Virus record (IMG/VR): IMGVR_UViG_3300021400_000095
Reading direction: 5' to 3' (one strand)
Source: a virus
Lineage: Duplodnaviria; Caudoviricetes
DNA: 64,000 bases
Of the stretch, positions 2,426 through 26,662 are shown piece by piece (positions within the stretch are counted from its first letter, which is position 1; each line of letters opens with the position of its first letter). The notes beneath the pieces are model-generated. The model was given only the letters and a program-made list of their open reading frames with translations. It did not search any database and had not been told where the DNA came from. The position numbers and the translations under genes are program-made.

Positions 2426-3364
2426 ATGTCAAAATATGATATTTTATTTAGTGAAAAAGAGAAAGAGAACATAATTAAAGATTATGTTGAAAACTTATTA
2501 TCAATTAAAGAAATTTGTTTTAAATATAGTATAAAAAACAAACAATGGTTATGCAAAAAACTTTTAAAAGGAAAAACAAGAAGTTATAATGAATCTTGTA
2601 AAATTGCACATAAAAAATATCCAGAAAAATTCTTACATACAGAAGAAACAAAAAAATTAATGAGACAAAAAAGGCTTGATTTTATGAAAAATCATCCTGA
2701 AGAAACTGCTTGGAGAAAAAGAAACAAACCTTCATATCCTGAGCAATGTTTTATTGATTTTTTAAATGAATATGGATATTCTGACAAATATTTAATTGAA
2801 AGAGAAAAAAGTATATTTCCATATTTCATTGATTTTGCTTTTAATGATTTAAAGATTGCAGTTGAAATTGATGGTTCACAACATTATCTAGAGGAAGATA
2901 GAATTAAAAGGGATAAGAAGAAAGATGAACTATTAATTTCTTTAGGATGGTCAATATTAAGAATTTCAGCAATTTCTTTAGTCAATAAAGAATTTAAAGA
3001 AATTGATAAAAAGTTATCTGAAATCATAGTTTCTGTTAAAACTGTAGTACAACCATTACAAGTTGGTTTAATAAAGAAAATAAAGGGGAAGAAAAGACTA
3101 TCAAAAAATGGTAAATGGTATGTAAATTACAGAGAAAAATCTGAAAAATATTCAGATAACCAAACAATTAAGCAATATGAAAATTCATTAAGACAGAGAA
3201 AAGTTAAAGACAGACCATCAAAAGAAGAATTATTTGAAATGATGTCAACACAGACATTTAAATCAATTGCTGAAAAATATGGTGTTTCAACAAATGCTAT
3301 TCAAAAATGGTGTAAGGCATATGGGATACCACATAGGAAAAGAGATTACAATAATTTGGGATAG
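2426..3364 (+). CDS. DUF559/Vsr-like endonuclease with C-terminal HTH; putative free-standing homing endonuclease
   Basis: S-x-x-E motif, YFIDFAF..KIAVEIDGSQH..RD...GWSILRI; C-terminal SIAEKYGVSTNAIQKW HTH; inserted between tRNAs. Confidence 0.8.
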   Translation: MSKYDILFSEKEKENIIKDYVENLLSIKEICFKYSIKNKQWLCKKLLKGKTRSYNESCKIAHKKYPEKFLHTEETKKLMRQKRLDFMKNHPEETAWRKRNKPSYPEQCFIDFLNEYGYSDKYLIEREKSIFPYFIDFAFNDLKIAVEIDGSQHYLEEDRIKRDKKKDELLISLGWSILRISAISLVNKEFKEIDKKLSEIIVSVKTVVQPLQVGLIKKIKGKKRLSKNGKWYVNYREKSEKYSDNQTIKQYENSLRQRKVKDRPSKEELFEMMSTQTFKSIAEKYGVSTNAIQKWCKAYGIPHRKRDYNNLG

Positions 3365-3918: not shown

Positions 3919-4036
3919 TGGGAGGTAGCTCAGTTGGTTAGAGCAGAGTATTTATGTTTTTAGTAACAGAAACTTACAGCAATATTTACAATGCATTTGG
4001 AGCCTCAGGTCATAGGTTCAAGTCCTATCCTCCCAA
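3919..4036 (+). tRNA. tRNA-Pro(TGG)-like gene interrupted by ~44-nt ACAGCAA-module insert (copy 4, ~3949-3992)
   Basis: TGGGAGG/CCTCCCA-A acceptor, GCTC..GAGC D arm, ATAGG-TTCAAGT-CCTAT T arm; insert GTTTTT-AGTAAC-AGAAAC-TTACAGCAA; TTTGG loop (Gln TTG register not excluded). Confidence 0.75.
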
Positions 4037-4594: not shown

Positions 4595-4697
4595 AGAAAA
4601 CAGACAGCAAATTAAGTTTAAGATTGTAGGTTCAATTCCTTCTGTTTTTAAAGAAATTTAAAGGCAAAAATAGGTAATCCAAAAACAAAGTTTTCTG
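4595..4697 (+). ncRNA. ACAGCAA-module RNA (copy 5), permuted T-acceptor-D-like order without anticodon arm
   Basis: AGAAAAC-AG-ACAGCAA ... GTTTTCTG; GTAGG-TTCAATT-CCTTC; TGTTTTTA/TAAAGGCA closed stem. Confidence 0.7.
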
Positions 4698-4709
4698 CTT
4701 GAAATACAA

Positions 4710-4865
4710 GCCGCCTTAGTATAGTGGTATTACAACTGACTTGCTACAGAGTGATTCACTGAGAAGAATTGCAAGGTATTAAAAGTGGTGAGCAGTACAG
4801 ATGATAGTTCAACTCTATCTACCTTGCCTAATCAGTAGATGTTGGTTCGATTCCGACAGGCGGCT
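4710..4865 (+). tRNA. tRNA-Thr(TGT) interrupted in the anticodon by an 85-nt tRNA-like insert (4744-4828)
   Basis: GCCGCCT/AGGCGGC-T acceptor; ACTGA-CTTG|TAA-TCAGT reconstitutes the classical Thr anticodon arm; GTTGG-TTCGATT-CCGAC. Confidence 0.85.
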
Positions 4866-4906: not shown

Positions 4907-5061
4907 GCCTGTATAGACTGAAATGGTGAAAGGGAGTAACAAACTGCTAAACAAATTTTAGTGAATGCATTAAGTTAAACTTTGAGTTAGTAAGTGTGAA
5001 AGGCTTAAGCAGCACCCTCTTTTGATAGAGGGGGATGTGGGTTCAATTCCCACTACAGGTA
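4907..5061 (+). tRNA. atypical tRNA with ~80-nt D-loop insert and 8-nt anticodon loop (TTTTGATA; Gln or Ser reading)
   Basis: GCCTGTA/TACAGGT-A acceptor, CCCTC/GAGGG anticodon stem, GTGGG-TTCAATT-CCCAC. Confidence 0.65.
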
Positions 5062-5142: not shown

Positions 5143-5186
5143 CAACAGAACAAATATTTTTTCCTTATCATTTCTTTGATAAGTAT

Positions 5187-5475
5187 AACACAAACTTGTC
5201 CTATAGTCCCTCAAATATAGGACCTTGCCATGTGCAATTAGGTAAAGGCATAAAATAGTGTACATATGTTTATGCATAATAAGAGACCATTCCAAAGTGT
5301 TGGGTTGCTAATTAAACATGTACTCAGCCATTCTTGGCTAGTCAGAATATAACAAATAAATCTGGAGAGAAGCACCTTGCCAACAGTTAAGTAAAACCTT
5401 GTAAAGAAAATTATTTCCAAAGGTCATCCATTTAAAATGGTTAAACAGTCGCAGTGATGTAGTAAAGTTTGTGTT
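5187..5475 (+). ncRNA. unassigned ~290-nt structured RNA
   Basis: 11-bp terminal stem AACACAAACTT/AAGTTTGTGTT plus several inner hairpins. Confidence 0.6.
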
Positions 5476-18266: not shown

Positions 18267-19859
18267 ATGAAAGAAATGTTTAAAATATCTGAAAATGCAA
18301 ATCCAAACTACCTTGCATTGATTACTAAAATTGGTGAAACCCATCCAATTGAAGGTGCTGATAGGCTTCTTAGAACCACTGTTAATGGTTTTGACATTGT
18401 TGTTGGTAATAACATGAAAGAAGGGGATATTGTTGTATATGTTCCTGTGGAATCTGCACTTTCTGAAAAGTTCCTTTCTACAAATAACTTGTATGAACTT
18501 GATGAATGGCAAAAAAATGCCAATGCATCTGAAATTGGTGTTCTTTATACCAAACTTAATGAACTTAAGTCTGAAGGTAAAAAGGATGAAGCAGATGCTG
18601 TTTATAAGGAAATTAAATCTAAGGTTGGATATTTTACCAATAAGAATAGGGTTAGAATTATTAACCTTAGAGGTTGCCCTTCTAATGGCTTTGTTGCTGG
18701 TGTTGATTCTCTTGTAAAATATAATTCTGAACTTGCTAATTCTAACTGGGAAGAACTTGTTGGAACTTATTTTAATTATGTAGGTGATGATGAGTTTTGT
18801 AAGAAATACATCCCTACTATCAAAGATAATAATGTTCCTCAAAATAATAGGAAAGGTACTAAAAAAGCACAAAAGAAACTGCAAAGGTTTGATAGACTTG
18901 TCCCTGGTCAGTATGAATTCCATTATGACACAATCAGACTTGATGCAACCAATATGCAAACTTTTATTCAACCAACTGATACTGTAACTATTACAGTAAA
19001 GGTACATGGTGCTCTTGCTGAAATGGCAAATGTTCTTATTAATAAGAAACTTTCTGTTTGGGAGAAAATTAAGAAATTCATTGGTTTTCATGTTGAAACC
19101 ACTGAATATGGAAATGTCTATTCTTCACATAAGGTAATCAAAAATAGATATATTAATAAGGGTGAAATTAATAATTTCTATGGTGCTGACATTTGGGGTT
19201 GTGTAAATAGGGACTTTGGTAAGTACCTTTCTGAAGGCATGACTGTTTATGGTGAGGTTGCTGGTTATGTTGAAGGCTCTGATAAAATGATTCAAAAAAA
19301 TCATGACTATGGTTGTAAGCCTGGTTGTTGGAAATTCATGCCTTATAGAATTACTGAAACTGACAAATATGGTAATTCAAGAGAATGGAACATTTCTGAA
19401 ATTTTTAAGTGGACCATTGATTTAATGGTTGCTCACCCTGAACTTGAAGATAAAATTCTTCCTATTAAGATACTTTATCATGGAAGAATTTGTGACTTGT
19501 ACCCTGATATTGAAATTGATGAAAAATGGTATAGTAATTTCCTTGAAAGACTTCATAATGATAAGAACTTCTATATGGAGTTAAAGGAACCCATGTGCCA
19601 TCTTTATGAGGAAGAAGCAAATGCAGCAAAGAAAGCACTTGATAAGGCAATTGCTGATGGTGAATCAAAGAAAATCATTGCTAAACTTGAAAAAGAGTTT
19701 AACAAATGGGAAGATATGAGAGCACCAAGGGAAGGTGTTGTTATTAGAATTGATAATGATGCCAAGGCAGAAGCTTTTAAAGTTAAGACTAATGCCCACT
19801 ACGGGGTTGAATGTGCACAACATGATGCTGGTGAAGTTGATATTGAGGAAATTTCATAA
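18267..19859 (+). CDS. ATP-dependent RNA ligase (Rnl2/DRB0094-like) with N-terminal OB/tRNA-binding domain
   Basis: HPIEGADRL OB motif; motif I TVKVHG, YGEVAG, REGVVIR, FKVK. Confidence 0.85.
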   Translation: MKEMFKISENANPNYLALITKIGETHPIEGADRLLRTTVNGFDIVVGNNMKEGDIVVYVPVESALSEKFLSTNNLYELDEWQKNANASEIGVLYTKLNELKSEGKKDEADAVYKEIKSKVGYFTNKNRVRIINLRGCPSNGFVAGVDSLVKYNSELANSNWEELVGTYFNYVGDDEFCKKYIPTIKDNNVPQNNRKGTKKAQKKLQRFDRLVPGQYEFHYDTIRLDATNMQTFIQPTDTVTITVKVHGALAEMANVLINKKLSVWEKIKKFIGFHVETTEYGNVYSSHKVIKNRYINKGEINNFYGADIWGCVNRDFGKYLSEGMTVYGEVAGYVEGSDKMIQKNHDYGCKPGCWKFMPYRITETDKYGNSREWNISEIFKWTIDLMVAHPELEDKILPIKILYHGRICDLYPDIEIDEKWYSNFLERLHNDKNFYMELKEPMCHLYEEEANAAKKALDKAIADGESKKIIAKLEKEFNKWEDMRAPREGVVIRIDNDAKAEAFKVKTNAHYGVECAQHDAGEVDIEEIS

Positions 19860-20986: not shown

Positions 20987-21271
20987 ATGAGTGATTTGCT
21001 AAATAAGAAATTTTTTAAGCACAAGAAGTTGAATACATTTTATCTCAAAAGGTTCAAGACTGAATCAAAGAGTAATTTTCAGGTTTGGAAGAAAAATGGT
21101 AAATATTATGTTGCAATAGGTGTAATATCTGTTGGTGACAGTCTTTATGCTGAAGAAACCATTGATTATGGGACTAACATTATTGAAGCAAGGAAGTATT
21201 GTGATGAACTTAGGCAAAATTATATCTTAAATGAAGTAAAAAGATATAAGAATTTAAAGAAAGTATATTAA
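20987..21271 (+). CDS. hypothetical protein
   Basis: ORF in operon context. Confidence 0.65.
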   Translation: MSDLLNKKFFKHKKLNTFYLKRFKTESKSNFQVWKKNGKYYVAIGVISVGDSLYAEETIDYGTNIIEARKYCDELRQNYILNEVKRYKNLKKVY

Positions 21272-22533
21272 TGATAGAAAAGTTATTTAAAATAAACATA
21301 TGTGAAAAACATCCTGAATATTGTTCCATTGAATATTTATGGGACAATATTTGGTCTATACCTGAGTTTGCAATTTTAAAGACATGTGAACAAAATCCAA
21401 AATGGCATGGTGAAGGAAATGTTATGAACCACACTGCACTTGTCATAAAGCATGCACTTCAAATTGTGAACAATGATATGACCTATGATGGTATTCATAT
21501 TAATGGATATTTGGATGCTGAAAGCAATCATAAAAGAAATGAATTTGAAACTGTTTGGCTTGACAAGAAGCATTTCAATGATACATTAATTTTGCTTACA
21601 GCAGCATTGTTTCATGATATTGGCAAAGGTGTAACAACCAGGCTTGGAAAAGATGGAAATTATCATTCATATAATCATGAATTTGAGGGTGAAAAACTTA
21701 CCAGATTACTTTTATGGGATGAAAACATTCATTTTAGGGAAGCAGTTTGTTCATTGGTTAAATACCATATGATGCCATTAAGTCTTTTTAATAGTAAAGA
21801 TTATTTGGAAAAAATTGTACAAATTTCACATAATGTTCCATCTTGGGAATTATTATTGAAATTAAAGTCATGTGATTTGGAAGGTTCCTTACAGGAGGAT
21901 AATCTTTTAAAGGAAAGGGACACCTTATATTTATCTGAATTGGTAGATATCACAACAAATATTAATTTCAAAGGTTTTCCATCAAAGAGACATTATGGTA
22001 TCAAGTATTATGAAAGAAACACCAAAAAACCATTGGATATTTATATTTTGATTGGGCTTTCAGGTGCTGGTAAAAATACTTTTATCAACAATATATTTGA
22101 AGATGATGTTGTTGCCATTAATGGCAAAGTTATAAAGAAACTTGACAAAGATAATACTACCATTATTTCAAGGGATGATATTAGGATTAAACTTGGATAT
22201 TGTTCTGAGAATGAAAAAATTGTTGGCACTACTGAACAGGAAAATAAGGTATCAGAAGTTTTCAATGAAGAAGTTCTATCTGCTGCAAAAGAAGGAAAAA
22301 CAATTATCATTAATAATATTAATTTAAAGAAGGAATATAGGTCACAGATAATAAACATGTTTTCAAACTATTGTTTGACAATAAATTATGTTTATATACA
22401 GGCAGACAAACTACAAAAGAATTTTGATAGAAGAGAAGGTCAAATGAACTCAGATTCAATTATTAGACAAATAAAGAATTTTGATTGGCCAGATTTCTAT
22501 GAATATGATAAATTTTACATTCTCACAAATTAA
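21271..22533 (+). CDS. HD-domain phosphohydrolase fused to P-loop (AAA_33/PNK-like) kinase
   Basis: QNPKWHGEGNVMNHT, FHDIGK, HM; GLSGAGKNT Walker A, SRDDIR. Confidence 0.88.
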   Translation: MIEKLFKINICEKHPEYCSIEYLWDNIWSIPEFAILKTCEQNPKWHGEGNVMNHTALVIKHALQIVNNDMTYDGIHINGYLDAESNHKRNEFETVWLDKKHFNDTLILLTAALFHDIGKGVTTRLGKDGNYHSYNHEFEGEKLTRLLLWDENIHFREAVCSLVKYHMMPLSLFNSKDYLEKIVQISHNVPSWELLLKLKSCDLEGSLQEDNLLKERDTLYLSELVDITTNINFKGFPSKRHYGIKYYERNTKKPLDIYILIGLSGAGKNTFINNIFEDDVVAINGKVIKKLDKDNTTIISRDDIRIKLGYCSENEKIVGTTEQENKVSEVFNEEVLSAAKEGKTIIINNINLKKEYRSQIINMFSNYCLTINYVYIQADKLQKNFDRREGQMNSDSIIRQIKNFDWPDFYEYDKFYILTN

Positions 22534-22599
22534 TTTGTGAGAATTTTTTTTTTATTTTTGGCATATTTTTTGTATATTTGTAAAAAGGTACAATATAAT

Positions 22600-23580
22600 A
22601 TGGATGAAATTAGTTTAATACAAAAAATAGGTGGAAATACAACACCAAATGACATACTTGAAATTGAAAATAAAGTCATTAAATTAGTTGAGGAAAGGGG
22701 TGTTGCACCTTTTCCTTACAAAAACATTATTAGTTCTATTGTAGAATATATTAAAAAAGAAACAAATTTAAATAAACCAACAGCAACAGTTGGGGAAAAG
22801 AAGCTTTACATACCATATGAGATTACCAGTAAAATTGATTTTATTGATAATTTAAATATTGAGGTTAATGTGGAATATACTACTGATGAGAAAAAACTTA
22901 GCAATTCAGGTGGTGGTATTACACATTTTTCCACAAGACCTAGAATGGTTAATGGAAAACTTGACAATATTACAATTGTAATACATTGTTTATCAATGTA
23001 TGGGTATTTGTTAGAAAGAACATTGTATAATTCATTATATCATGAAATACATCATGCATATGAAGCATATTTAGATTTAAAGAAAAATGGATATTATAAA
23101 AGATGGCTCAACCAAGTCAAGAAATCTAATATTAATGTTACTGATATTTTTAATAATAATGAAGACAATAATTTGTTTAATATAATATTATATAGGTTAT
23201 TTTCTGAAACTGAATTTAATGCACTTATTTCAGGCTTATATGGTGATTTAAAAGGATTTCATTCAATTAGGCAAAACTTTCAAAAAGATATTAAAAATAC
23301 ACAAGCATATTATATTTACTATTTAATCAGTCAAAATTATAAAGCACTTTATGCAAAAATAAATGACAGTAATATTAGTAAAGTTAAAAATTTATTGGTT
23401 GACCATGGGATTATATTAAATCCATATAATAATTCAACAGCAAGTTATGTTAAAGAACTTTCAAGAAAAACAAATTATTTGTTAAAGGATTTAATTAAAG
23501 GTATTGGAAGGGCTGCTTCATTATATTATGATAATCAAGAGGAAAAATTTCCAGATAAAAATATTAAAATAGAAAATTAA
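22600..23580 (+). CDS. HExxH putative metallopeptidase
   Basis: LYHEIHHAYE and downstream ETEFNA. Confidence 0.6.
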   Translation: MDEISLIQKIGGNTTPNDILEIENKVIKLVEERGVAPFPYKNIISSIVEYIKKETNLNKPTATVGEKKLYIPYEITSKIDFIDNLNIEVNVEYTTDEKKLSNSGGGITHFSTRPRMVNGKLDNITIVIHCLSMYGYLLERTLYNSLYHEIHHAYEAYLDLKKNGYYKRWLNQVKKSNINVTDIFNNNEDNNLFNIILYRLFSETEFNALISGLYGDLKGFHSIRQNFQKDIKNTQAYYIYYLISQNYKALYAKINDSNISKVKNLLVDHGIILNPYNNSTASYVKELSRKTNYLLKDLIKGIGRAASLYYDNQEEKFPDKNIKIEN

Positions 23581-23582
23581 AT

Positions 23583-24014
23583 ATGGATAAAAATTGGCAA
23601 TATTATGGTGTTTTCTTTTCTGATAAAGTAAAGGAACTTTTATATAGGAAAGCAAGTCAATATCTTGACCTTCCTTTTATGTTTGAAAACTATTATTTTG
23701 ATATTGATACATGGAAGAAATATTGTGACCATGTAACAATTGTATATAATGATGGAAACCCTGAAAAACAAAAAATTGCAGAAGGACTTGACCTATTTGT
23801 AGGTAATGAGGCTTCTATGATGGTAACACATTTGGGTGTATCTGATAGAGCAGTTGCTTTTAAAGTTGATTATAAAACAACAAATAAGATTTCACATGTA
23901 ACTGTTGCAGTTGCTCCTGGTGCAAAACCTGTTGAAAGCAATTATATTACTGATTGGGAAGAAATTGATGTTTTTTATATTAGTGGCAAAATTAATAAAG
24001 TTTTAAAGAAATGA
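23583..24014 (+). CDS. 2H phosphoesterase (cyclic phosphodiesterase)
   Basis: Two HVT motifs; HVTVAVAPGAKPVESN resembles the fungal tRNA-ligase CPDase domain. Confidence 0.8.
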   Translation: MDKNWQYYGVFFSDKVKELLYRKASQYLDLPFMFENYYFDIDTWKKYCDHVTIVYNDGNPEKQKIAEGLDLFVGNEASMMVTHLGVSDRAVAFKVDYKTTNKISHVTVAVAPGAKPVESNYITDWEEIDVFYISGKINKVLKK

Positions 24015-25273
24015 CAATAAATATCTATAAAGAAATCCTTAAAGAACTAAAGAACATAATTACAGGTACTGAATGGGAAAATCATATTTTTTCTGTTGGT
24101 GGTTGTAATAGGGATTATATTATGGGAAATGAAATTAAAGACATTGATTTTGTTTGTGATTTGCCAAATGGTGGTATTAATTTTGCAAAATGGCTCAAAG
24201 AAAATGAATATGTCAATAATAGCATTGTTGTTTATGAAAATTTTGGAACTGCAATGTTTCATTTAAATAAATTTCCTGATATTGAACTTGAAGTTGTTCA
24301 TACAAGAAAAGAATGTTATCATGATGCAAAGACAAGAAATCCTGAAACTTCTTTTGGCACACTTCTTGAAGATTGGGAAAGAAGGGACTTTACAATTAAT
24401 GCAATATATTACAACATTAGTAAAGGTGAATTTTTAGATTTTAAAGATAGAGGTAAAACTGACATTGAAAAGAAAATAATTAGAACCTGTAGTTTAAACC
24501 CTGATATAGTTTTTACTGAAGACCCTTTAAGAATTCTAAGAATGGTTAGATTTGCTACAAAACTGGGGTTTGAAATTGATAATAATACTTTTAGTAGTGC
24601 TAAAAAGAATACAAACAGGTTATCAATTATTAGTAAAGAAAGGATTCAGGATGAACTTAATAAAATGCTTACTTCTGGTAATGCAGATTATGCAATGAAA
24701 CTTATATATGATTTAGGTGCTGATGAATATATTTTTAATTCAAAAATTGATTGCCCTGAGCAAATAATTAAATCTCTGAAAAACTATAAGTTACTGCCAA
24801 ACTGTGATGTAAAAAATCTTGAAGCCAATTTGACTATTATATATAGTTTCTATCCTGATGTAGAAGATAAAATGAAATATCTCAAATATTCAAATGAAAT
24901 AATTTATTTGGTTATGTTTTATTTTGATTTATTTGATGATATTAATTTATCAAGAATGACACCATCAGGAATTAGAAAAATACAATATAACAGCAAAACA
25001 TTTAATAATTTAATAAATGCCTGTAATATTGCTACTGCTGTCCTTAACACACCAAATGTTAATAAAGTATTGGAAAGCACTAATAAAATGATGAAAGCTG
25101 GCATAGCAATGTTTAATTATAAACTTCCTGTTGATGGAAATGATGTTATGAGAGTGCTTCATATTAAACCATCACCAGTTGTAAAAACAAAATTGGATTT
25201 CCTGTTAAATCAGGCTTTTATTAATCCATTCCTTAGTAAATCTGATTGCGAATTATTGTTAGAACTAAATTAA
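24011..25273 (+). CDS. cca: CCA tRNA nucleotidyltransferase (class II)
   Basis: VGGCNRD, DIDF, FGT, RRDFTINA, EDPLRILR, SKERI motifs. Confidence 0.9.
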   Translation: MTINIYKEILKELKNIITGTEWENHIFSVGGCNRDYIMGNEIKDIDFVCDLPNGGINFAKWLKENEYVNNSIVVYENFGTAMFHLNKFPDIELEVVHTRKECYHDAKTRNPETSFGTLLEDWERRDFTINAIYYNISKGEFLDFKDRGKTDIEKKIIRTCSLNPDIVFTEDPLRILRMVRFATKLGFEIDNNTFSSAKKNTNRLSIISKERIQDELNKMLTSGNADYAMKLIYDLGADEYIFNSKIDCPEQIIKSLKNYKLLPNCDVKNLEANLTIIYSFYPDVEDKMKYLKYSNEIIYLVMFYFDLFDDINLSRMTPSGIRKIQYNSKTFNNLINACNIATAVLNTPNVNKVLESTNKMMKAGIAMFNYKLPVDGNDVMRVLHIKPSPVVKTKLDFLLNQAFINPFLSKSDCELLLELN

Positions 25274-25280
25274 TAATATT

Positions 25281-25439
25281 ATGACTAGTAATACTAATGA
25301 AACTTTATTAAAAAATACCTATCAAGTTGGAAACTCTGTTTTTAACTCCTATGAAGAAGCATTATGCTATTTAATGAAAGAAAAAAATTATACAACTAAT
25401 GCAACAGAAATAATAATAAATACTGAATACTATTATTGA
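25281..25439 (+). CDS. small hypothetical protein (52 aa)
   Basis: Translated by hand: MTSNTNETLLKNTYQVG...; fills gap. Confidence 0.5.
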   Translation: MTSNTNETLLKNTYQVGNSVFNSYEEALCYLMKEKNYTTNATEIIINTEYYY

Positions 25440-25441
25440 TT

Positions 25442-26662
25442 ATGACTAAATTAACAATTGAATATCTTAGAGAACATAACATGATTGCCTATGAATATAT
25501 TAGAGGGTCACATGCTTATGGCACTAACATTGAAACCTCTGATAAAGATATTGGAGGTGTTTACATTTGTCCAAAGGAAACTCTTGTTGGACTTAGATGC
25601 AATTATGTGGAACAGGTTGCTGATGAAAAAAATGATACTGTTTTCTATGAACTTGGTAGATGGGTTGAACTCCTTATGAAATCAAATCCAACTGCACTTG
25701 AAAGTTTGTTTATACCTGAAGATTGCATCATTGGTAAAATTCATCCAGCAGTACAACATATTCTTGACCATAGAGACCTTTTTGTTACTAAAGAATGCCT
25801 AAATCCTCTATTGGGTTATTCATATTCACAAATTGAAAAAGCAAAGGGTCTTAATAAGAAAATCAATATTCCTGAAGATTTCCAAAGAAAAGATATTCTT
25901 GATTTTTGCTATACTTTTAAGAATCAAGGAAGTCAACCAATTAAAGATTTTCTTAAAGAAAATTATCTTGACCAAAAATATTGTGGTCTTGTAAACATTC
26001 CTAACATGAAAGATGTTTATGGTGTTTACTATGATTGGGCTTCATATTTCAAATTTGAGAACATTGATTGGTATGATGCAAGTTTTCAAAGTGGTGGAAT
26101 TAAATACCCATTTTCAAAGTTCATCAAAGATTTTGAGCATGCATATATTAGAGATAGAATTAATGATAAGGTGTTTTTCCATTATTCTGGAATTGTTCAT
26201 CCTGATGAATTATCAAAGTCAAATGTTGTTAGATTGTCATCCATTCCAAAGGGTGAAAAGCCTATTTGTTTTATGACTTATAATAAAGATGGTTATGAAA
26301 GTCATTGTAAAAAATATAAAGAATGGGTAGATTGGAAAAAACATAGGAATCCTGTAAGGTATGAAAATAATAAAGGACATAACTATGATGCCAAAAATCT
26401 ATGCCATACAATTAGATTAATGACAATGGGTGTTGAACTTGCTGAAGGAAAAGGTTTCAATGTTAGAAGAAGTGGTGAAGATGTAAAGCATCTTCTTGCA
26501 ATTAGAAATCATGAAATGTCATATGATGAAATCATGGAAGAAGCAACCAATTTGAAAAAAATTTTTGATGAGAAAGTAAAAACAACAACTCTTCCTGATA
26601 AAATTGATATTTCTTTAGTTAATAAACTACTTATTGAAAGTAGAAGTATTGCTTATGAATGA
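25442..26662 (+). CDS. DNA-pol-beta superfamily nucleotidyltransferase (RlaP/YcgL-like)
   Basis: GSHAYGTNIETSDKDIGGVY, NPTALESLF, YDAKNLCHTIRL, LLAIR. Confidence 0.85.
   Translation: MTKLTIEYLREHNMIAYEYIRGSHAYGTNIETSDKDIGGVYICPKETLVGLRCNYVEQVADEKNDTVFYELGRWVELLMKSNPTALESLFIPEDCIIGKIHPAVQHILDHRDLFVTKECLNPLLGYSYSQIEKAKGLNKKINIPEDFQRKDILDFCYTFKNQGSQPIKDFLKENYLDQKYCGLVNIPNMKDVYGVYYDWASYFKFENIDWYDASFQSGGIKYPFSKFIKDFEHAYIRDRINDKVFFHYSGIVHPDELSKSNVVRLSSIPKGEKPICFMTYNKDGYESHCKKYKEWVDWKKHRNPVRYENNKGHNYDAKNLCHTIRLMTMGVELAEGKGFNVRRSGEDVKHLLAIRNHEMSYDEIMEEATNLKKIFDEKVKTTTLPDKIDISLVNKLLIESRSIAYE

Follow-up and report, generated by a model that had tools for sequence, protein, structure and literature searches.

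An insert with a pseudoknot leader and a tRNA look-alike in the anticodon of a phage tRNA-Thr gene: boundaries and possible routes of removal

Lak-type tRNA introns and the split threonine tRNA gene

Introns in bacterial and phage tRNA genes are normally self-splicing and belong to group I or group II, while those spliced by proteins are a feature of archaea and eukaryotes. Group I introns of bacterial and phage tRNAs occupy several anticodon-loop positions, are mobile and set their own boundaries; they follow a U before the 5' site, end in a terminal G and contain a core (P3-P7) of at least about 200 nt. A tRNA-like intron was reported in the tRNA-Thr(TGT) gene of Lak megaphages and described as a 'tRNA in a tRNA' (Devoto et al. 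2019; PMC6784885, Fig. 4, Table S6). The Lak tRNA introns were called 'enigmatic', a remark repeated in a 2026 survey (PMC13037316), and neither paper gives a boundary rule, a pseudoknot or a mechanism for them. Our literature search, outside which most subscription journals lay, returned no paper explaining how Lak-type introns are removed.

The window (the whole 64,000-nt stretch of DNA analysed) contains a new member of these published but unexplained introns. An 85-nt insert (4744-4828, + strand) lies between anticodon positions 35 and 36 of a tRNA-Thr(UGU) gene, and the boundary rule and pseudoknot described below are absent from the literature found. As with the Lak introns, the insert is tRNA-like, belongs to a large gut phage, sits in the anticodon loop of a tRNA-Thr(TGT) and has intronless alleles in relatives. 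The published Lak introns in Thr, Gly, Phe and 'Tyr' genes also share its N-U-A start, hairpin leader, 8-bp inner stem and terminal C located 9 nt past the T stem. The Lak Thr intron, however, gave no BLAST match to 4744-4828 and only 49% identity when alignment was forced, indicating a shared design but a different allele. It is 114 nt long, interrupts the loop at 36/37 and has an inner anticodon arm, whereas the present insert is 85 nt long, interrupts the loop at 35/36, has no such arm and has a longer P2 helix in its leader.

The 5' exon (4710-4743, +) supplies the acceptor 5' strand, D arm, anticodon stem 5' strand (4735-4739) and loop bases 32-35, while the 3' exon (4829-4865, +) supplies loop bases 36-38, the anticodon stem 3' strand, T arm and acceptor 3' strand. 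Deleting 4744-4828 yields a tRNA-Thr(tgt) of about 72 nt with all pairs present in the acceptor (7/7), anticodon (5/5) and T (5/5) stems, so that the coordinates, sequence and restored tRNA-Thr(TGT) given in a preliminary description of this locus were borne out. The 35/36 junction is unique for a Thr loop, and alternative junctions giving an Ala tRNA or a 9-nt loop were ruled out by C3-G70, the intronless alleles and the family rule. The discriminator base is U, and CCA is absent from the gene. Rfam read 4710-4865 as a single insert-containing tRNA (51.3 bits, E 1e-8), while ARAGORN missed the gene at default settings and labelled it Arg in intron mode. A comparable misreading was observed for the Lak 'tRNA-Tyr(GTA)' gene (L004 22504-22667, Lak-A2; L110 3316-3463), which by the family rule is an Asn(GUU) gene split at 35/36 and has a body that matches Asn. 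Standard tools thus misread the anticodons of such genes, and the annotation is corrected here.

The genome is AT-rich, and only 30 CG dinucleotides were observed in the 64 kb window. The preliminary description took retention of CG in the exons as a sign of selection. The count itself is accurate, with 4 of the 30 located in 71 exon bases, but it is weak as evidence of selection because 23 of the 30 lie inside the tRNA array anyway and because the intronless orthologue in a relative (L012) lacks two of the exon CGs through compensatory change. The extreme CG avoidance of the window (observed/expected 0.021; ACG accounts for 1 of 15211 codons) is common to its closest relatives but not to L018. 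ACA is the commonest threonine codon in the window (750 of 1247).

Intron structure and the boundary rule

The intron starts with CUA, a case of the N-U-A motif found directly past the 5' splice site (4744-4746, +), followed by an H-type pseudoknot leader at 4747-4770 (+), in which P1 pairs 4747-4749 with 4759-4761 and P2 pairs 4753-4757 with 4766-4770. This 27-nt leader (4744-4770, N-U-A plus pseudoknot) was absent from the preliminary description. P2 runs straight into the tRNA look-alike (4771-4827, +), composed of an 8-bp acceptor-like stem (4771-4778/4820-4827), a D-like loop (4784-4793) and a T arm (4803-4819), with neither an anticodon arm nor CCA. A terminal C (4828, +) is the first unpaired base past the 8-bp stem and lies 9 nt past the T stem, so that the intron ends in CC with the 3' splice site next. 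The inner stem was predicted with a pairing probability of 1.0, in agreement with the acceptor-like stem and T arm noted earlier. The Rfam tRNA score at 4772-4827 (19.1 bits) fell below the gathering score. The alternative fold suggested earlier, in which GCAAG pairs with the 5' CTTGC copy, had a probability of 0.0, and the closest homologue (L072) lacks that copy.

Energy-based folding, which is unable to show pseudoknots, let a second ACUGA, located in the leader, pair with the 3' anticodon strand, and the 85-nt insert alone was no more stable than shuffled sequences (z -0.5). The structural assignment therefore rests on covariation. Among ten members with identical leader spacing, 98.8% of cells were paired and five pairs had changed on both sides; none of 500 shuffles reached this score, and slid controls gave 10-41%. 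P2 was part of no search pattern, while P1 was included in the patterns of three scans. At the level of sequence comparison, these compensatory changes demonstrate that 4747-4770 forms an H-type pseudoknot.

Candidates for a wider family were taken from pattern scans and syntenic loci, with a detector for split tRNAs containing an inner T loop. In large phages, including Lak, we found 31 distinct leader-bearing inserts of 74-141 nt, distributed over 11 tRNA types. Boundaries were placed by two conditions, a 3' end 9 nt past the inner T stem and an anticodon loop of 7 nt. Under this rule the first three bases were N-U-A (U at +2, A at +3) in 31 of 31 and the last intron base was C in 31 of 31. 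A short hairpin directly followed N-U-A in all members, and the full 8-bp inner acceptor was observed in 28 of 31. The rejoined anticodon agreed with that of the nearest intronless tRNA, compared with the loop masked, in 28 of 31. The splice site was located at 34/35 in 4 members, at 35/36 in 18 and at 36/37 in 9, and all four letters occur among the exon bases flanking both junctions. Because the rule holds at three loop positions while the junction exon bases are free, it is the insert and not the host tRNA that sets the boundaries, and the insert seems to mark its own cut sites. The preliminary description had considered cutting by an anticodon nuclease, which is unlikely given that the site goes with the insert and varies between 34/35, 35/36 and 36/37 over 11 tRNA types.

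The search patterns held TACA or TACG, and later ones also the terminal C, so that the family is partly selected for these features. The patterns left the position of U-A relative to the boundary unfixed, and members found without any pattern (Lak, L018, L066 Tyr and L072 Asn) follow the same boundary rule. P1 and P2 together comprised at least 8 bp in 16 of the 31 members, compared with a shuffled mean of 2, while in the Lak subtype P2 has just 1-3 pairs and an A-rich tail. In the inner acceptor and T stems the sequence is free and pairing is kept, with every acceptor pair covarying in the family, which indicates that shape is what is kept; the T loop is the sole conserved part of the look-alike. 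Comparison across the family thus establishes the boundaries, the pseudoknot leader, the tRNA-like acceptor and T arm, and the fixed 3' ruler. Together with the intronless alleles, the family analysis also supports the earlier view of the insert as a nested tRNA mimic and an intron, outside groups I and II and probably spliced by proteins.

The split-tRNA detector also returned a separate leaderless group, in which the insert runs from the first base of the inner tRNA to CCA (L069, L369, L382, L385 and L198). The insert at 4744-4828, with its 27-nt leader and without CCA, lies outside this second subclass. A scan of a genome collection yielded one family member (L262, in a Bacteroidales bin), which is probably a binned phage contig; the other matches were due to chance, as was the L001 match of the first exon-based pattern. 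The N-U-A pseudoknot leader was also observed twice outside tRNAs, at L018 6814 (+) and L072 5121 (-), against about one chance match given by shuffles in an equal amount of sequence. Both copies lie in a second conserved RNA and share a conserved upstream element, with an ACAGCAA module following in L018, and the leader in this setting may be an autonomous cut signal.

Alleles, mobility and genomic setting

Contigs of two other studies span the split tRNA-Thr gene with zero substitutions and differing flanks, which excludes an assembly artefact. Intronless alleles in related phages, which the preliminary description had proposed as a check, are present in two cases. In the CG-poor relative L012, the corresponding position is occupied by an intronless tRNA-Thr that is identical to the spliced product at 62 of 72 positions (38 of 41 over the 3' exon half and flank), and the intronless tRNA-Thr of another phage contig (L394) shares 28 identical bases spanning the junction. 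The closest intron, in the Thr gene of L072, is 84% identical to the one here while the exons are 67% identical, and the next closest, in a Val gene (L023), is 74% identical with exons at 53%. As the introns are closer to each other than the exons, we infer that, in the course of evolution, the intron is transferred from one tRNA gene to another. Two strains (X2 and X3) contain an extra 36 nt at 4702-4723, a stub ahead of the split gene. In both, the 28-nt stub matches the start of the intronless L012 allele at 25 of 28 positions, possibly a scar of replacement by recombination.

BLAST against named phages gave exon-level matches only. A neighbouring SprT-like gene had no match in IMG/VR, and its closest relatives lie on contigs that end before the tRNA. 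Matching DNA was found in sheep and cattle gut metagenomes, and syntenic relatives lie on contigs of up to 393 kb; the source is for these reasons most likely a rumen jumbo phage. Relatives such as Lak suggest a Bacteroidales-type host.

The window starts inside a long array of tRNA and tmRNA genes (16 genes by ARAGORN), in which several other elements were observed. A tRNA-shaped gene at 3919-4036 contains an insert with an ACAGCAA module that disobeys the boundary rule of the leader-type introns, and a similar gene occurs at L018 5036-5151. A third oversized tRNA-like gene (4907-5061) varies more between strains than the split Thr gene, had no homologue among the loci compared and is not of the leader-type class. 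ACAGCAA modules enclosing tRNA parts are repeated at 1542-1674, 1913-2025, 2122-2214 and 4595-4697, one of them with the parts in permuted order, and such modules are present in L012 and L018 too; the stretch 4614-4690 is replaced in one strain. A DUF559/HNH-like endonuclease gene (2426-3364) lies inside the array and ends at a tRNA-Leu, and its homologue sits immediately behind an intron-bearing tRNA-Glu in L018/L019; the gene may play a part in mobility. In L012, a tRNA-Lys-like gene (2218-2768) is interrupted by about 480 nt with G as the last base, an insert that appears group I-like by eye and was not called by the Rfam gathering search. A non-coding stretch of about 290 nt (5187-5475), without an Rfam match, is conserved in L012 (75% over 322 nt), L379, L072 and L018. 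RNA-library contigs of two studies start at 5179 and 5191 while DNA contigs continue past there, a weak hint that this stretch is an expressed, unnamed phage RNA.

Possible routes of removal and comparison with known systems

We consider it likely that the intron is removed by some route. Its anticodon-loop site, use of several positions, mobility and intron-set boundaries are shared with group I tRNA introns. A group I assignment was rejected, however, as the insert has G as the last exon base, a terminal C and a length of 85 nt. A group II intron, which would start with GUGYG, end in AY and contain domain V, was likewise rejected for an insert that starts with CUA and ends with CC. Rfam returned no ribozyme or intron match to 4744-4828 at E up to 10.

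The reading we tentatively prefer is a removable intron with its own cut signals that is excised by ordinary hydrolytic RNases, RNase Z-type at the 3' site and RNase E-type at the 5' site, and sealed by an ATP-dependent ligase. The tRNA array would be transcribed as a precursor, in which an RNase Z-type enzyme, probably that of the host, would grip the inner T loop and cut past C4828, so that the 3' exon would carry a 5'-phosphate. At the other end, a pseudoknot-guided nuclease would cut 3 nt upstream of P1 and leave a 3'-OH on the 5' exon, host RNase E/G being the best candidate. The anticodon stem would hold the two halves while a phage-encoded ATP-dependent RNA ligase joins them, and after CCA addition the mature tRNA would read ACA. 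A 3'-OH and a 5'-phosphate are ends that ATP-dependent ligases can join.

RNase Z-type cleavage is proposed because the 3' site lies past the first unpaired base at a fixed distance from the T loop; RNase Z cuts past the unpaired discriminator to give a 3'-OH (PMC7479834) and measures from the elbow (PMC4919913). Cytidines behind the discriminator suppress RNase Z (PMC7479834), and by T-arm numbering the last intron base is C74, which counts against this enzyme; it fits only if the 8-bp stem shifts the register. The fixed 9-nt ruler agrees with the tRNA-end-processing idea of the preliminary description at the 3' site, but that idea fails for RNase P at the 5' site, as the mimic acceptor begins 27 nt downstream of it. 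RNase P could cut the inner element at its own +1 position and compete. At the 5' site the invariant U fits the RNase E preference for U at +2, with A or U at +1 (PMC5222698); U+2 was observed in 31 of 31 members and A/U+1 in 26 of 31. Against RNase E, U+2 is a single base, A+3 and the start of P1 are more conserved than the enzyme requires, and the stretch of single strand is short. Both Bacteroides thetaiotaomicron and the rumen Bacteroidales bin holding a leader-type intron have RNase E/G.

The candidate sealing enzyme is an ATP-dependent RNA ligase of Rnl5/NgrRnl-like type (18267-19859, +; PHROG 968 E 1.6e-32, PHA02142, Atlas 0.98), with an N-terminal OB module and an adenylyltransferase domain with a KxHG motif; one of its matches was weak and below the cut-off. 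Homologues are present in Lak and in two near-complete intron-bearing phages, and we infer the link of this ligase to the intron. The preliminary description had named it as the sealer. It is indeed a ligase, but of a nick-sealing family that fits imperfectly, given that the Rnl5 enzymes characterised so far seal nicks in duplexes and act poorly on single strands (PMC4408790). A search for Rnl1 gave no match anywhere, the control included. The near-complete intron-bearing phages have ATP-dependent ligases, and because intron-bearing phages often have several of the PF09414 family, another of these may serve as the sealer.

A less likely alternative, though the strongest of the rivals, is that a dedicated and unrecognised endonuclease of the phage or host reads the pseudoknot and elbow, leaving cyclic-phosphate and 5'-OH ends that a phage phosphodiesterase and kinase would heal before ligation, as in fungal tRNA splicing. 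In its favour, a gene cluster, including the ligase, lies 13-22 kb from the split gene. It comprises an HD domain plus polynucleotide kinase for RNA end healing (21271-22533, +), a protein matching the cyclic phosphodiesterase domain of fungal tRNA ligase (23583-24014, +; PF08302 E 3.4e-7), a CCA-adding enzyme family member (24011-25273, +; PF01743, PF12627), which the mature tRNA would need for its CCA, and an RlaP RNA-repair nucleotidyltransferase (25436-26662, +; PF10127 E 1.2e-17). For the kinase, phosphodiesterase and RlaP proteins a role in intron removal is presumptive. Such RNA-repair genes are common in jumbo phages (PMC7824862), and for that reason the kit is no proof of a link to the intron. 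The conservation of N-U-A-C and the terminal C beyond the needs of host RNases, as well as the two leaders outside tRNAs, argue for a dedicated enzyme. The cluster also contains an unnamed phage protein with an HExxH motif (22537-23580), which matched only hypothetical phage clusters and, having no nuclease match, was rejected as the splicing nuclease. EndA-family proteins were matched in 0 of 4 large intron-bearing phage records, with control matches only in archaea, and RNase Z-like and RtcB proteins were likewise unmatched in the near-complete or large intron-bearing phage records searched.

Cleavage by the RNA itself is improbable, whether the pseudoknot were to self-cleave the 5' site as a small ribozyme or the whole insert were to self-splice, with stacking of the pseudoknot on the acceptor stem placing N-U-A near the terminal C. 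The intron-defined boundaries, the invariant U, A and terminal C, the continuity of P2 with the acceptor stem in 4744-4828 and the leaders outside tRNAs are consistent with it. Against it, invariant bases are very few for a catalytic core, the shortest members measure 74 nt, the Lak subtype retains just 1-3 pairs of P2, nothing is kept in the inner part beyond features read by proteins (elbow and stem length), and no Rfam ribozyme family was matched.

Equally improbable is an insert that is never removed and acts as a decoy or scaffold, hiding the anticodon from host anticodon nucleases, soaking up tRNA-binding proteins or releasing the mimic as a small RNA. The phage could use the host tRNA-Thr, and the array contains other non-decoding tRNA-shaped RNAs (3919-4036, 4907-5061 and the ACAGCAA modules). 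The spliced joint was not seen in RNA-library contigs, which are ill suited to detecting a modified RNA of 75 nt. The only such contig over the gene, 158 nt long and from a cattle rumen RNA library, reads through the 3' junction unspliced at a depth of 2.2 and could be DNA, and two RNA runs (X15 and X17) gave mostly matches to tRNAs of other organisms. A decoy would give no reason for base-exact boundaries, nor for the split anticodon rejoining to the right amino acid in 28 of 31. In four Pro(UGG) genes the split anticodon is the same despite inner acceptor stems altered in compensatory fashion. Finally, a pseudogene from chance insertion or an assembly artefact is largely refuted and very improbable. 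In its favour, the zero substitutions in 156 nt between strains are not significant alone (P about 0.1). Against it, independent assemblies span the gene, 31 members share a covarying structure and all exon stems are intact.

These observations probably describe a further tRNA-splicing route, distinct from group I, group II and EndA, in which a mobile 74-141-nt intron would combine a 5' pseudoknot with a 3' tRNA-elbow ruler and rely on borrowed RNases and a phage ligase; in its strongest version the pseudoknot would be a new small ribozyme. If splicing is real, large phages either have a means of concealing anticodons until transcription is over or harbour a selfish element that host enzymes remove. 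The boundary rule makes the removal mechanism testable on a 156-nt transcript.

Archaeal and eukaryotic tRNA introns processed by EndA/TSEN are likewise short and protein-spliced, with the same logic of cutting followed by ligation. Their bulge-helix-bulge was rejected here, as its central helix has 1 of 4 pairs at this locus and is complete in 1 of 31 members, and the site is not at 37/38. In phage T4, Pnkp and Rnl1 repair tRNA-Lys after cleavage by PrrC; the broken anticodon loop is healed and sealed by the phage's own enzymes, much as proposed for intron sealing. The T4 repair differs in that a single cut without an intron is sealed by Rnl1, whereas the ligase of the window is Rnl5-like. 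In the tRNA-like processing signals of tmRNA and MALAT1/Men-beta (PMC4919913), which RNase P and RNase Z cut, the position of a cut is likewise set by a mimic of acceptor and T arm, through its distance from the elbow, but their products are not rejoined, and the 5' boundary of the intron lies 27 nt upstream of the mimic.
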